A stretch of DNA of 64,000 nt from an uncultured Oscillospiraceae bacterium (GCA_963827665.1 CAWHBQ010000006.1:191953-255952); one strand, 5' to 3'; counted from the stretch's first letter, positions 26,171 to 30,379 are shown. Translations and numbers: made by a program. Notes: generated from the letters alone by a model not told the origin.

Positions 26171-26665
26171 ATGAAAATGAAAAATGTTAAACTTAGCCTG
26201 GTCCTGATCGTTGTTGCCCTGATGGTCGCCGCTGTTGGATCAGCTGCTTTGGCCTCGATCTCCCTTGACCGTACAGTTGAAGCCGGACAAGTCTTGACGG
26301 ATATCGATCCAAACGCTGCCATTGTCTTCACCGCTGACGCTGCCTATTCCACCGTGATTGACTCGGCCACCAAAGCAAACGGCGAAGTGATCCTCGACCT
26401 GAATGGTGCAATCAGCAACACCCTGACTGAAGGCTACAACACTGAGGCAACTTTTGCCATTGGTACTTCAGCTGCTCCGGTCTTCTACATCACCAACAAC
26501 TCGGATGCTCCCGTTGCTGTCAATCTGTCTGGTGCAAACGGTGGTCTATCCCTGGTCAACCCAGGCACTGTCCCGGCAGGTGGTAAGGTCGGCTTCTATT
26601 TCGCAATTGATACCCATGGTGTTGCTGCCGGGTCGTCTATCGGCGGTACCCTCACCGTCAGATAA
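26171..26665 (+). CDS. Small secreted Gly/Ala/Thr-rich protein with SipW-cognate-type signal peptide (TasA/camelysin-like fibre subunit candidate)
   Basis: MKMKNVKLSLVLIVVALMVAAVGSAALASISL signal. Beta-rich low-complexity mature part. RBS GGAGG. First gene of the operon with the S26B signal peptidase. Confidence 0.65.
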   Translation: MKMKNVKLSLVLIVVALMVAAVGSAALASISLDRTVEAGQVLTDIDPNAAIVFTADAAYSTVIDSATKANGEVILDLNGAISNTLTEGYNTEATFAIGTSAAPVFYITNNSDAPVAVNLSGANGGLSLVNPGTVPAGGKVGFYFAIDTHGVAAGSSIGGTLTVR

Positions 26666-26766
26666 TTGAACCGGACCATTAAGATCGAACTTTTCGATCA
26701 TCAAACGATTGTCAACCAAATCATATTCAAGGATTAGGCCGCAATTGGGAAAGAGAGCTGACCAGT

Positions 26767-27318
26767 ATGAAAAATAGGATTTCACTCCTGTTGATCTTAC
26801 TCGGCCTGGCTCTCTTTCTTTTCCAGGCCACAGGCAGTTTTGCACTCGAATCAGTTGCAGCCAATCGGTCCATCCATGCCGGTAAGGTCGTTGATGACCA
26901 GCAGGGTTTACTGGCCCTCAGTGGGTTTAACAACACGATCTGGCCAATCAGCAACAACTTGACTTACAAACCAACCGGATCAATCACAAATAACACCAGT
27001 AAACCGCTCCGCCTGACGATCAATGCCAAGCTGATCGCCCCATTGCCATTGAAGAAATTCACGCTCAATATCCGTTTCGGTAGCTTGAGCACAGATCCAA
27101 CCTTGTATTTTTCAGAGGCAGATACAAGCGCCAAATCCATCCAGAGTATCTTGATTCAACCTGGACAGACTTTCACCATTCCGGTCCAGTCCTTGTTCAA
27201 AACGGTCAGTGAACAGGCCACGGTGTCCTATTCATTCAGGATTGTCAGTACAGATGGCAAGATCGATACAACCCTGCAAGATTCTGCTGCCGCCCCACGC
27301 AGGCAGATATTCCGATGA
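26767..27318 (+). CDS. Second secreted protein with N-terminal signal peptide (accessory/anchor subunit candidate)
   Basis: MKNRISLLLILLGLALFLFQATGSFALESVAA signal. 183 aa, Thr/Ser/Asn-rich. Stop overlaps the sipW-like start (ATGA). Confidence 0.6.
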   Translation: MKNRISLLLILLGLALFLFQATGSFALESVAANRSIHAGKVVDDQQGLLALSGFNNTIWPISNNLTYKPTGSITNNTSKPLRLTINAKLIAPLPLKKFTLNIRFGSLSTDPTLYFSEADTSAKSIQSILIQPGQTFTIPVQSLFKTVSEQATVSYSFRIVSTDGKIDTTLQDSAAAPRRQIFR

Positions 27319-28418
27319 AGAAGATTGTTTATGGTGTGCTCATCGTCGCAGTGACCCTTCTTGTTCTAGTCAACCTGGGGGCGATGGCTACAGGCACGCC
27401 ATTTTTGACTTATGTCTATTCGCAGAGCATGGAACCGCTGGTCCATGTCAATGATGCATTTTTTGTCTTGCCGGCCAAGTCGAGGTCAGTTGGCGACATC
27501 ATTGTCTACCGGCCGCTGTATCTTGATGCCGAACTGGTCACGCACCGGATCCATGCAATCGAGGGCAAAGGTTTCATCACCAAAGGTGACAATAATCCCT
27601 ATACAGACCAGTCAAGTGGTGAACCAGCTGTGACGCCATACCGTATTGCCGGAAAGGTTTTCACGATTGCCGGCCGGCCGCTGATTATTCCTCAGCTGGG
27701 CCGGTTAACCAGTCTGGTTAAAAAGGGCTTAGGTTCGAACATCCGCCTCGTCGCTAGTGCCATGATTGTCCTTGGCGTCCTGAATCTGCTCTGGAGCATG
27801 TTGTACCCGAAACGTAGCCGTAAATCGAGAAGACGGTTCCGGCTTCGCCATATCTACCGGATCGTCACAATCATTTCGATCGGCATCCTGATGGTCACCC
27901 TGCTGATTGGTTCACGGGTGACCCAGGTTCGTTACCTGGTCAGCGAAAATCCTGGTACAGCCAGCAATCGCGTGATGGTCAATGAAAATGGCCAACTGTC
28001 TGTGACCCTTCGCAATTCAAGCTTGATCCCGGTCTGGCATTTTTCTTCCGGTCTCGGCGAATTAGGAATCGCTTCAGCACCATCTATGTTGTTGCCGCTA
28101 TCAGAAACCAGAATCCTTGTCTCAGTCAAGCCGCAACGCGAAACCGGCTGGCAGCAGGGATATATCCACACTTACCAGTATCCTGCAGTCTTACCCCACT
28201 TCATCATCGCAGCACTGCACCGGCAGAGCCATTGGCTTGCCCTGGCTGCAATCGGTCTGGTAGTCTATCTTTATCTTTCGCTCTTTTTCCGGCTGATAAA
28301 TATTATCCCGGGACTTGAAGGCTGGATCCCGCTCAAGGCGATCAAGGATAAGCTCCTTGATCGCCGCTGGCGCCGGGCTAAGAGAAAATATCTGCTCAGA
28401 AAGCGAGTTCGCTTATGA
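27315..28418 (+). CDS. Signal peptidase I, archaeal/eukaryal type (S26B, SipW-like) with a long C-terminal membrane extension
   Basis: SQSMEP...GDIIVY...THRI...TKGDNNPYTD catalytic boxes characteristic of SipW/Sec11. 367 aa with 3 additional TM segments. Translationally coupled to both neighbours. Confidence 0.85.
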   Translation: MKKIVYGVLIVAVTLLVLVNLGAMATGTPFLTYVYSQSMEPLVHVNDAFFVLPAKSRSVGDIIVYRPLYLDAELVTHRIHAIEGKGFITKGDNNPYTDQSSGEPAVTPYRIAGKVFTIAGRPLIIPQLGRLTSLVKKGLGSNIRLVASAMIVLGVLNLLWSMLYPKRSRKSRRRFRLRHIYRIVTIISIGILMVTLLIGSRVTQVRYLVSENPGTASNRVMVNENGQLSVTLRNSSLIPVWHFSSGLGELGIASAPSMLLPLSETRILVSVKPQRETGWQQGYIHTYQYPAVLPHFIIAALHRQSHWLALAAIGLVVYLYLSLFFRLINIIPGLEGWIPLKAIKDKLLDRRWRRAKRKYLLRKRVRL

Positions 28419-30379
28419 AAATAAACAAACAAGCCATCCGTAAAGTTGCTTTGTTCCTATCCCTCATGCTCTTGATTGCTTCACTGGCGTGGACTTGGAT
28501 CAGTTGGATCCCGCAGACGACAAACCTGCCGTCTGCCCCCGAAAGCAGTCTGACTCTGACCCCTGAGTATGAAATCGTCAGCCGTCAAGACTCGATTGTC
28601 TGGCCTTCAGGGACCGTCCTGCCCCAGGGTAGTGCAGCCTATTTTTATTCGACACTGCCACTCATCAAATTGATGCCGGCCATCAAAATCAGCACAGTCA
28701 ATGAAAGCCAATTAGACGGGATTCTCCACACCTCAATCATCCTGCAGGCTATCAATGACAAAGGCCAATCCTATTGGAGCTACCCGCTCCAGGAACCGAC
28801 GGATACAACCTTTTCCTTGAAAAAGCAAGCCAGCGATCCGCCAGGCGACCTGGCCTATGAAGCTCCGATGGTCCCTGTCGATGCTGTATCAGCGTACAGC
28901 CGCGCCACCCAGATCGGCCAGGAAATTGGCTTTGAGAATGTAGCGATCCAGCTCGTTGTCCAGACCTCGGTTCAACTGAAAGGCACCTTGAACAACCAGC
29001 CCTGCAACAATTCGCTGACCAATTCGTTGCCCATTGACCTTAACCAGGTGAGTTTCAGCTTGCCGAAAGCAGTCGATCAAACGAACAGTATCCAGTTGAA
29101 TGGGCAATCCAATACATCGGCCAATGTCAACCAGGATATGCTCCAGCAATGGATCGATCTTGGCCGGAAAAATGGTCTGGCGCTTTCCATCAATGCAGCG
29201 ATCCTGCTCTTTGTCCTGATTCTGCTCCTGGCCAACAGCCGCGGCAAACGGGCCCGCGGCCAGGCGATGATCGACCACCGCCGCTTCAGGGAATGGATTA
29301 CTGAAGGTAGTTTCCAGGTCAGGGACGCTGTCGCCATCCAGATCAATTCACTTGAGGGACTTGTGGATCTGGCAATTGACATCGACAAACGGGTGATCTT
29401 TGATCCGGTGCAGAAAAAATACTATGTTCCGGATGAAAAAATTGTCTATGTCCATGACCCTTTCAAGGATAGTCTGGCGATGGGCGCTAAACCGCAGTTA
29501 GGCAGACTACTGCTCGATATTGGCGTGTTGAACCCTCAACAGTTGGAAACTGCTTTATATTATCAGCAACGGACAGGCACCCAACTTGGCGAAAGCCTGA
29601 TCGCCCTCGGTTTTATCGACGAAGAAATACTCTATAGCACCCTGGCCAGCCAGCTCAATCTGAGTTTCGTCGATATGAAACCGGAAGAATTGACTGCCTC
29701 CCCGGATGACCTGGCTAAACTGACTCTGCAACAAGCTCGTGTGCTGCTTGCACTGCCCTTGGGCAAGCGGTCGGACGGGAAAATGGTCGTCGCTTGTGGA
29801 GATCCATCCCGCAAAGCAATCAGATCGCTCCTGGCTGAAATTTTCCAGTGTGAAATCGCCTTGGTCATTGTCCGTCCATCGGTTGTCCGTGAAGTCATCG
29901 AATCCCTTGCCGGACTGAAACGGCAGAATATGTCCGTGGCCACGGATGTGGCCATGGACACGGTTGCTGGCGACAACAACCAGGAACAGCCTTCATCAGG
30001 TCTTTCAGCAACTGAATGGAAACAGTTCATCAGCAGCTATATCCGTGGTTCACTCCCGATCGACCTGTTCCAGAAGACTTTGCACCAGAAAACCCTCGAA
30101 AGCAGCCAGGTCAGCCTTCTGCACGGATTAAGCCGAGCCATCGGATCTATGGACTGGAAAGACCGTCAGGAAAAGAAAACGCCGGAACTGATCACCGTTC
30201 TGCAGCACGCCAATTACCTGACCCCGGATGATGTTGTCTGGGCGAATCGTGAAGCTGGCCTGCAGAAAGTGTCGATCGAACAGCAATTGGTCGATAGCTG
30301 CCTGGTATCTGCGGCTTCGCTGCAACATGCGGCTTGGCTCCTGAAAAAACTGGAAAATGTTCTGAGCCAGAATGTGTAA
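28415..30379 (+). CDS. Bitopic membrane protein with a cytoplasmic MshEN/T2SSE_N c-di-GMP-binding domain
   Basis: Signal-anchor TM, about 250-aa external domain, second TM (LALSINAAILLFVLILLLA), then QLGRLLLDIGVLNPQQLETALYYQQ-RTGTQ-LGESLIALGFIDEEILYSTLASQ. These are two tandem 24-residue RLGxxLLxxGLLxxxxLxxxLxxQ motifs with a 5-residue spacer, as in MshEN. Confidence 0.8.
   Translation: MKINKQAIRKVALFLSLMLLIASLAWTWISWIPQTTNLPSAPESSLTLTPEYEIVSRQDSIVWPSGTVLPQGSAAYFYSTLPLIKLMPAIKISTVNESQLDGILHTSIILQAINDKGQSYWSYPLQEPTDTTFSLKKQASDPPGDLAYEAPMVPVDAVSAYSRATQIGQEIGFENVAIQLVVQTSVQLKGTLNNQPCNNSLTNSLPIDLNQVSFSLPKAVDQTNSIQLNGQSNTSANVNQDMLQQWIDLGRKNGLALSINAAILLFVLILLLANSRGKRARGQAMIDHRRFREWITEGSFQVRDAVAIQINSLEGLVDLAIDIDKRVIFDPVQKKYYVPDEKIVYVHDPFKDSLAMGAKPQLGRLLLDIGVLNPQQLETALYYQQRTGTQLGESLIALGFIDEEILYSTLASQLNLSFVDMKPEELTASPDDLAKLTLQQARVLLALPLGKRSDGKMVVACGDPSRKAIRSLLAEIFQCEIALVIVRPSVVREVIESLAGLKRQNMSVATDVAMDTVAGDNNQEQPSSGLSATEWKQFISSYIRGSLPIDLFQKTLHQKTLESSQVSLLHGLSRAIGSMDWKDRQEKKTPELITVLQHANYLTPDDVVWANREAGLQKVSIEQQLVDSCLVSAASLQHAAWLLKKLENVLSQNV

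Follow-up and report, generated by a model that had tools for sequence, protein, structure and literature searches.

How an intracellular second messenger might decide when proteins outside the cell mature or assemble is the question raised by a four-gene operon of an uncultured Oscillospiraceae bacterium. The operon occupies positions 26171-30379 of a 64,000-nucleotide stretch of DNA (GCA_963827665.1, CAWHBQ010000006.1:191953-255952; hereafter the window, with positions counted from its first letter), and a preliminary description had presented it as a secreted-fiber operon of the TasA/SipW type tied to an MshEN receptor for cyclic di-GMP (c-di-GMP). Open reading frame (ORF) calling confirms four co-directional genes at these positions, all on the + strand. 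P1 (26171-26665, 164 residues) is a beta-sandwich protein with a Sec signal peptide and the putative major fiber subunit, whereas P2 (26767-27318, 183 residues) is its paralog and a putative minor subunit (adapter, tip or base). P3 (27315-28418, 367 residues) is a signal peptidase I of the archaeal/endoplasmic reticulum (ER) type (S26B) with the architecture of TafD, and P4 (28415-30379, 654 residues) joins a DUF5305/TafG module to an MshEN domain and a helical C-terminal domain. All four genes had been described as coupled by overlaps; this holds for three of them, with ATGA overlaps at the P2/P3 and P3/P4 junctions, but not for P1, which is separated from P2 by 101 nucleotides. A GGAGG immediately precedes the P1 start codon. 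The next gene 3′ of P4, encoding a DUF1801 protein, is convergent, and thus the operon ends at 30379.

The core of the earlier proposal, a peptidase and small secreted proteins encoded together with an MshEN receptor, is borne out by the matches of P3 to TIGR02228 and of P4 to PF05157 and NF053729. Its assignment to the Bacillus-type TasA/SipW operons is not: the locus yields no Peptidase_M73/TasA or TIGR04088 match, P3 reaches 30.1 bits with the SipW equivalog model NF046067 against a cut-off of 190, and the closest described systems are the Tafi loci of haloarchaea. On balance, we favor the reading that the locus is the Bacillota counterpart of the archaeal Tafi/TasA-superfamily fiber loci, encoding a fiber that would be both induced and licensed by c-di-GMP, through a riboswitch in the leader and through P4.

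The MshEN domain of P4

P4 contains a complete MshEN (T2SSE_N/GSPII) domain at residues 358-504 (29486-29926, +), and hidden Markov models (HMMs) agree with this identity at scores far from chance expectation. PF05157 matches residues 416-502 with 30.4 bits (cut-off 23.1), and NF053729, the NCBIfam model of the c-di-GMP motif itself, matches residues 361-413 with 53.7 bits (cut-off 38). Two motifs of 24 residues each, motif I (QLGRLLLDIGVLNPQQLETALYYQ; residues 361-384, 29495-29566, +) and motif II (QLGESLIALGFIDEEILYSTLASQ; residues 390-413, 29582-29653, +), are joined by the five-residue spacer QRTGT. Residues 360-473 align without gaps to the N-domain of MshE (5HTL; phmmer E 1.6e-12), with the motifs falling on MshE residues 8-61, and P4 also matches all three GSPII domains of PilF (phmmer E 3e-21). 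In the structure model, the four-helix N-subdomain and alpha/beta C-subdomain of the MshEN fold are both present, and the domain superposes on MshE at a template modeling (TM) score of 0.79.

Residues L2, G3, L17, L21 and Q24 hardly vary in either motif among 41 P4 homologs. The ligand-contact positions are kept in 37-41 of these sequences, except for Gln24 of motif I, which is kept in 32 and replaced by His in seven. Position 1 is Gln in 34/41 homologs in motif I and Arg in 32/41 in motif II. The preliminary description had given the signature as two tandem 24-residue motifs of the form RLGxxLLxxGLLxxxxLxxxLxxQ with a spacer of five residues; the tandem arrangement and the spacer stand, but position 1 is Gln rather than Arg in both motifs of the window protein (Gln361 and Gln390). 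In MshE, binding is carried by the leucines, the backbone amides of G3 and Gln24, and Arg9 mutants lose less than 5-fold affinity (PMC5013675). GSPII-B of PilF, whose motifs begin with Lys and Leu, binds c-di-GMP at 6 nM, so that Arg is dispensable at this position, and Lys, Leu and Pro are all tolerated there among proven binders (PMC11731258). In GSPII-A, which does not bind, the second motif is degenerate and retains only 45% of key positions (PMC11731258). Given that the leucines, G3 amides and Gln24 carry binding and that GSPII-B binds without Arg, the MshEN domain of P4 is, judged from its sequence, likely to bind c-di-GMP.

The N-terminal half of P4, residues 1-350 (28415-29464, +), is a DUF5305/TafG module, as delimited by PF17231 (residues 161-346, E 2.3e-27), hydropathy and an AlphaFold2 (AF2) model. 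Hydropathy places membrane helices at residues 11-29 and 255-273, so that P4 is not strictly bitopic as had been stated, and its extracytoplasmic half, previously noted as a large domain, belongs to the known DUF5305 module. The AF2 model, built on 41 homologs with a predicted local distance difference test (pLDDT) score of 84.7, runs from membrane helix 1 through a beta-sandwich ectodomain (45-230) and membrane helix 2 to a small cytoplasmic alpha/beta domain (280-347), and then through the MshEN four-helix and alpha/beta parts (362-504) and a disordered linker to a helical C-domain (532-651). This last domain (residues 528-654, 29996-30379, +) is modeled at pLDDT >90, matches nothing in Pfam or NCBIfam and is absent from the shorter P4 homologs of loci L019 and L030. 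It was considered as a second, degenerate MshEN_N, and the comparison was not significant (hhalign E 0.008, probability 5%).

Two other forms of the protein were encountered among related loci. In the haloarchaeal locus L033, the small cytoplasmic alpha/beta domain is duplicated in a TafG-like protein of 532 residues (6962-8560), with an acidic linker rich in Gly between the two copies (SSLEGLVDLAIDTDGRVIHD... and DSLPELVGLAVDVDRPVIRD...); variation in the cytoplasmic tail of DUF5305 proteins thus extends to archaea. Loci L025-L029 (e.g., L027 6836-8179) encode a 447-residue P4 paralog that lacks the ectodomain and consists of one membrane helix and a cytoplasmic part, the MshEN portion of which falls below Pfam significance. 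Its neighbors are unrelated (FtsEX, aldo-keto reductase, radical SAM) and include neither peptidase nor pilin genes.

A TafD-like peptidase beside a TafG-like accessory

P3 matches TIGR02228, the model of archaeal/ER-type signal peptidase I, with 66.8 bits (cut-off 51.85). Its catalytic core aligns to human SEC11A (7P2P) and SEC11C, and Ser38, His77 and Asp92 are invariant in 26 homologs. Hydropathy gives four membrane helices (4-22, 145-163, 180-198 and 307-325), the last three of which follow the catalytic domain; a basic C-tail and a basic loop joining helix 2 to helix 3 put residues 23-144 and 199-306 on the extracellular side. To our knowledge, SipW has no C-terminal multi-helix extension of this kind, and Bacillus has no DUF5305 partner for it. 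The S26B identity and the three extra helices had been recognized before, the latter as unusual, but four membrane helices and two extracytoplasmic domains are the published architecture of TafD (PMC11821415), and the extension is therefore normal for this class. The second outside domain of TafD has been reported as pilin-like; in P3, the corresponding comparison gave no significant match (hhalign E 0.04, probability 1%).

The operon has several features in common with the Tafi loci of haloarchaea (PMC11821415, PMC12337348). P3 corresponds to TafD in its four helices and two outside domains, P4 to TafG as the DUF5305 accessory encoded with the peptidase, here through the ATGA overlap of P3 and P4, and P1 and P2 to the small subunits of beta-sandwich type, which they resemble at the leader-to-mature junction. 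At L033, which encodes TafD-like and TafG-like proteins together with twin-arginine translocation (Tat) pilins matching the TafE and TafC models, the peptidase matches P3 at E 1e-36 and the TafG-like protein matches P4 at E 5e-19. A peptidase paired with a DUF5305 protein is the signature of the Tafi, ABP and AbpX fiber loci (literature including PMC11821415). In Haloarcula, tafA-D alone yield a secreted, unpolymerized pilin, and addition of tafE-G restores fibers (PMC11821415); assembly is therefore the step at which an accessory of the latter set acts. In the AbpX preprint, DUF5305 is proposed to be an accessory of signal peptidases; natural peptidase-DUF5305 fusions are noted there, as are c-di-GMP enzymes and DUF5305 accessories in the vicinity of bacterial loci.

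The window differs from Tafi systems in several respects. Its host is bacterial, the leaders of P1 and P2 are of the Sec rather than the Tat type, its TafG counterpart carries the MshEN domain and an extra helical domain, and its leader contains a c-di-GMP riboswitch candidate, whereas c-di-GMP signaling is no part of described Tafi systems. With tapA-sipW-tasA of Bacillus subtilis and the wider TasA superfamily (ABP, AbpX, 0406 threads), the operon shares a dedicated ER/archaeal-type signal peptidase encoded with fiber subunits, but it lacks TasA/Peptidase_M73, TapA and SipW-cognate leader matches; in addition, AbpX-type peptidases have ten membrane helices, in contrast to the four of P3.

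The small secreted proteins P1 and P2

P1 and P2 each contain a single N-terminal hydrophobic segment according to hydropathy, that of P1 (residues 10-28) being signal-peptide-like. Neither of the leaders, MKMKNVKL... and MKNRISLL..., contains an RR motif, and they are thus not Tat-type; Sec-type homologs do exist in the literature on Tafi loci. The preliminary description had called them SipW-cognate-like, and the signal-peptide-like segments are indeed present, but Pfam and NCBIfam searches of the four proteins returned no TIGR04088 leader match, nor any match to Peptidase_M73/TasA or TapA. The two proteins are paralogs (hhalign of the families: probability 96.6%, E 7e-10), with P1 homologs at 22 related loci, in two or three copies at some and in tandem at L003 and L005, and P2 homologs at 25. 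Directly after the hydrophobic core, both families share the junction G-S-A-A-L...(D/N)-R......D, and a similar leader-to-mature junction, GTGAFDAVSANRTASVAVVTDAD, occurs in one Tat pilin of L033. P2 also has a conserved C-terminal DTxxxPRR motif.

The preliminary description had suggested modeling the small proteins to look for a TasA/camelysin-like jelly roll. The AF2 model of P1 is an all-beta sandwich (pLDDT 70), of moderate quality since it was built on a five-sequence alignment, with residues 23-40 disordered in the monomer. Homolog searches with P1 returned few proteins, two from the single sequence and four from a profile. Its structural neighbors are mostly generic immunoglobulin (Ig), PapD or MSP-like domains, the best among solved pilins being the Natrinema Tafi pilin. 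Searching PDB sequences with the P1 family profile brought up designed beta-propellers only, through spurious repeat matches, and no significant link to a solved pilin. Larger proteins with a P1-like domain are encoded a few kilobases (kb) from the module at two loci, L016 (13614-14798, -, 394 residues, E 1e-29) and L018 (14839-15939, -, 366 residues, E 2e-22); they have no Pfam match and are possible tip or anchor subunits.

The leader of the operon

Upstream of P1, a promoter-like site, TTGCCA-17 nt-TAAAGT with TG (25985-26013, +), matches the consensus at 9 of 12 positions and is identified by this match only. It is followed at 26024-26108 (+), 63 nucleotides 5′ of the P1 ATG, by a c-di-GMP-II riboswitch aptamer candidate (RF01786) that matches the full covariance model (1-84) with 47.1 bits, short of the gathering score (53.5). 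Its E value is 1.9e-9 in a local search and 3.5e-7 when the whole 64-kb window is searched against all 4227 Rfam families, and the candidate is the sole riboswitch-type match in the window. A terminator-like hairpin, read from the sequence at 26094-26132 (+), is formed by CCGACCACA (26094-26102) and TGTGGCCGG (26111-26119) with a U-run at 26124-26132. Its 5′ arm overlaps the conserved AACCG.CC of the aptamer and the 3′ strand of aptamer helix P1. Ligand-bound aptamer should therefore prevent termination, which would make the hairpin the expression platform of an ON switch.

A homologous aptamer occurs in the same position at L030, 5′ of its P1 homolog (47.2 bits), with a terminator of the same overlap design (-15.7 kcal/mol, z -2.6). 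In the alignment of these two sequences, 83% of cells pair, as opposed to 22-42% with partners slid, and there are five compensatory pairs. The pseudoknot AUGCG/CGCAU pairs 5/5 in both, with a compensatory change, and differs from the Rfam consensus, which may explain the sub-threshold score. At L019, the same position holds a class I c-di-GMP riboswitch (55.5 bits, threshold 35), followed by a hairpin and a T7 run. Among related loci, a custom covariance model (R1) found no element beyond those of the window and L030, and a class I motif scan found that of L019 only.

Recurrence of the module in uncultured Bacillota

Other genomes share the arrangement, which defines a small family: the four-gene module recurs in ~25 uncultured Bacillota genomes. 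For P4, 76 relatives were recovered at E 1e-56 or better, named only "DUF5305 family protein" or "hypothetical", and its genome matches, all uncultured Bacillota, belong to Mobilitalea, Herbinix, Lachnoclostridium, Oscillospiraceae, Peptococcaceae, Erysipelotrichaceae and Mageeibacillus. Wherever the contig is long enough (~24 loci), P1, P2 and P3 homologs lie directly 5′ of the P4 homolog. The genes are usually arranged as P1-P3-P2-P4; P1-P2-P3-P4 occurs in the window, at L019 and in the closest relative (P0002). When 1.84 billion representatives were searched exhaustively with a profile, 77 proteins were returned at E 1e-30 or better, ~35-40 of them, as counted from the table, being full-length DUF5305-MshEN fusions. 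The ordinary DUF5305 proteins in this list have 330-370 residues and end where MshEN would begin. In ten longer DUF5305 proteins that were checked, the sole extra recognized domain was again MshEN, in P0110, a truncated member of the fusion family. The close relative L031 has a P4 homolog without the MshEN part, and an HD-GYP gene nearby; MshEN is thus a modular addition.

Genes of c-di-GMP turnover abut the module at several loci, encoding GGDEF-EAL (L023), GGDEF-GerE (L017, L022), REC-GGDEF (L016, L018), GGDEF-REC-Hpt (L003), GGDEF-HD-GYP (L018) and PAS-GGDEF-HD-GYP (P0002 locus) proteins. Three independent lines thus link the module to c-di-GMP, namely the MshEN fusion, riboswitches of two classes and the neighboring turnover genes. 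The GGDEF-GerE protein of L017 and L022 (3597-4697, -), which has a LuxR-type helix-turn-helix, is encoded divergently beside the pilin gene and might act as a c-di-GMP-responsive transcription factor at loci without a riboswitch.

A model for the locus and its alternatives

In the proposed mechanism, P1 and P2 would be exported by Sec and their leaders cleaved by the Ser-His-Asp peptidase P3, after which P1, as the major, and P2, as the minor subunit, would polymerize outside the cell, most likely by donor-strand complementation. P4 would be the TafG/DUF5305 partner of P3, with its ectodomain sandwich and two membrane helices sitting with the peptidase and its cytoplasmic MshEN domain binding c-di-GMP. 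With MshEN on P4 and a riboswitch in the leader, c-di-GMP probably controls the fiber at two levels. At transcription, c-di-GMP on the class II riboswitch would block the overlapping terminator, allowing the operon to be read through. At assembly, c-di-GMP-bound P4 would signal across the membrane and license processing or polymerization at the P3-P4 platform, in the inside-out manner of LapD-LapG. The fullest version of this scheme, in which c-di-GMP gates the peptidase/assembly platform from the cytoplasm, with P4 as an inside-out transducer, P3-P4 switching between idle and active states and the riboswitch completing a coherent feed-forward loop, is put forward tentatively and is more doubtful than probable.

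Several observations weigh against the reading of the locus as a c-di-GMP-controlled fiber system, and most are best considered with the alternative that they favor. Gln361 and Gln390 lie outside the published sets for position 1 ([RKPN] and R/K/L) and, like the natural variant without MshEN in L031, would suit a domain that has lost nucleotide binding and serves protein docking only, as do the N-domains of XpsE and Xanthomonas PilB with XpsL and PilZ, leaving any c-di-GMP control purely transcriptional. This is unlikely, as the hydrophobic-triad, backbone and Gln24 contacts are kept across the 41 sequences, the second motif of P4 is not degenerate, unlike that of GSPII-A with its 45% of key positions, NF053729 is passed by 53.7 against 38 bits, and proven binders have Lys, Leu or Pro at position 1. 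A false-positive riboswitch call, which would turn the leader into an ordinary 5′ untranslated region with c-di-GMP acting, if at all, via P4, is quite improbable. The candidate scores under the Rfam threshold and so is missed at gathering, its outer stem P1 pairs poorly (68% of cells), its covariation comes from two sequences, the terminator hairpin of the window is weak (RNAfold -10.7 kcal/mol, z -0.6), and a riboswitch is detectable at only 3 of ~27 loci (the window, L030 and L019), with no such element at most of the related loci. Yet it is a full-length match in the correct place and strand, with an E value of 3.5e-7 for the whole window against 4227 families, and its position is taken at L030 by a counterpart that shows compensatory changes and overlaps its terminator in the same way, and at L019 by an above-threshold class I c-di-GMP riboswitch.

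The identity of P1 and P2 as fiber subunits, for which the neighboring genes are the main argument, calls for similar care. The proteins might instead be secreted or surface beta-sandwich proteins (adhesins, matrix or wall-associated proteins) that need a peptidase of their own, with c-di-GMP regulating maturation and no polymerization taking place. Such a role would fit the mostly generic Ig, PapD and MSP-like neighbors of P1, the lack of a significant sequence link to a solved pilin and an operon without tip, anchor or regulator genes like TafC, TafF and TafB. The TafA and TafE pilin models (NF052520, NF052522) do not recognize P1 or P2 as pilins: the TafE match to P1 is faint (E 0.006, 16.4 bits, cut-off 155) and appears even at that level in only 3 of 25 family members, and the P1 or P2 profile against the haloarchaeal Tat pilin is not significant and suggestive only (hhalign E 0.01, probability 4%). 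We nevertheless hold a non-fiber role to be somewhat unlikely, because P3 and P4 form the pair that marks Tafi, ABP and AbpX fiber loci, the leader-to-mature junction common to P1 and P2 has a similar form in a Tat pilin that a haloarchaeal locus encodes next to TafD/TafG-like genes, tandem P1 copies (L003, L005) and a major subunit with a paralogous minor one are typical of pilus loci, and the Natrinema Tafi pilin is the best match of P1 among solved pilins. That the locus is a common, already annotated tapA-sipW-tasA variant with nothing new to it is scarcely credible. Both have a SipW-type peptidase and small secreted proteins, and DUF5305 beside such peptidases has been described, but TasA/Peptidase_M73, TapA and TIGR04088 matches are missing, the SipW equivalog score is 30.1 rather than 190 bits, database names stop at "DUF5305 family protein" or "hypothetical", the DUF5305 papers found by full-text search make no mention of MshEN, and only ~35-40 full-length fusion clusters turned up among 1.84 billion representatives. 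Further points against the favored reading concern P4: structure comparison of its ectodomain gave no specific match to subunits of the eukaryotic signal peptidase complex, only generic beta-sandwiches, its homologs all come from uncultured genomes, and the physical P3-P4 complex is a putative one, suggested by gene linkage together with the literature proposal.

Relation to known c-di-GMP systems

P4 shares its two 24-residue motifs and five-residue spacer with the MshEN receptors MshE, the PilB/PilF ATPases and the glycosyltransferase NfrB (PMC5013675, PMC11731258, PMC8669469), and its predicted fold is that of the c-di-GMP-bound forms of MshE and PilF GSPII-B. In NfrB, too, MshEN is attached to a membrane machine making an extracellular polymer (PMC8669469). 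Unlike these receptors, P4 has Gln at position 1, and its output is a signal-peptidase accessory with an extracytoplasmic domain rather than an ATPase or glycosyltransferase.

In the LapD-LapG system of Pseudomonas, a two-pass inner-membrane receptor binds cytoplasmic c-di-GMP and acts through its outside domain on an extracytoplasmic protease, on which the fate of a surface adhesin depends. The receptor, LapD, is built from a degenerate GGDEF-EAL, a HAMP and a periplasmic domain; the protease, LapG, belongs to the cysteine proteases and releases the adhesin. The likeness to P4 and P3 is one of logic only, with cytoplasmic c-di-GMP sensing relayed to an outside protease; the two systems are not homologous, the window encodes a signal peptidase as the protease, and fiber assembly would be expected to be activated. 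At the level of transcription, c-di-GMP-II riboswitches (RF01786) precede pilus and adhesin genes in Clostridia, for example pilA1 of C. difficile. There, as is proposed for the window, a class II aptamer leads a surface-fiber operon, and a terminator overlapping the aptamer 3′ end predicts an ON switch. The window differs in that the operon is Tafi-like instead of encoding a type IV pilus, and in its non-consensus pseudoknot and sub-gathering score.

Other features of the window

Two GGDEF proteins had been reported in the window, and Pfam confirms both. A multi-PAS GGDEF protein (19654-22890, +; GGDEF 2e-49) is encoded 3.3 kb upstream of the operon, not adjacent to it, and is a possible source of c-di-GMP; a 7TM-GGDEF protein (42054-43637, +; HisKA_7TM and GGDEF) is encoded 11.7 kb downstream. 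Directly 5′ of the riboswitch leader lies a 339-residue ORF (24817-25836) with no Pfam match and no counterpart in related loci. Just 3′ of the operon, a 681-residue SPFH/Band-7 (flotillin-like) membrane protein (30950-32995) and a 669-residue protein without Pfam match (33328-35337) are encoded, neither of which is kept beside the module elsewhere. Three consecutive ORFs at 15346-19371 (-; 681, 364 and 297 residues) have no Pfam match at E 1e-5 and no homolog in related loci. A group II intron is present at 2292-4109, with domains D1-D4 at 2292-2585 and its 3′ end at 4033-4109, and contains a 469-residue ORF (2609-4018), presumably a reverse transcriptase/maturase.

Implications

A full-text literature search found no DUF5305 paper that mentions MshEN, no paper combining MshEN with TasA or a signal peptidase, and no relevant paper combining a c-di-GMP riboswitch with SipW. 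The DUF5305-MshEN combination is visible in precomputed Pfam annotations, but unnamed. The view that the arrangement had not been described therefore holds for the fusion and the two-level design, which were not found in the literature searched, but not for the pairing of peptidase and DUF5305, which is known from Tafi.

Fibers of the TasA superfamily and the Tafi type are emerging as widespread chaperone-free biofilm scaffolds in bacteria and archaea. A DUF5305 protein fused to a well-understood c-di-GMP sensor offers a direct handle on the timing of fiber assembly and on the role of DUF5305, which the fusion predicts to be a regulatory subunit of the peptidase/assembly platform. The uncultured host is no barrier, since the biochemistry is feasible from synthetic genes. 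A riboswitch and a protein receptor for the same ligand in one operon would show in compact form how feed-forward control can act at two levels. If the proposal is true, control at signal-peptide cleavage or fiber nucleation would constitute a new class of c-di-GMP output, and the family provides a testable case of second-messenger control at protein maturation in Gram-positive anaerobes, where few protein effectors of c-di-GMP are known.

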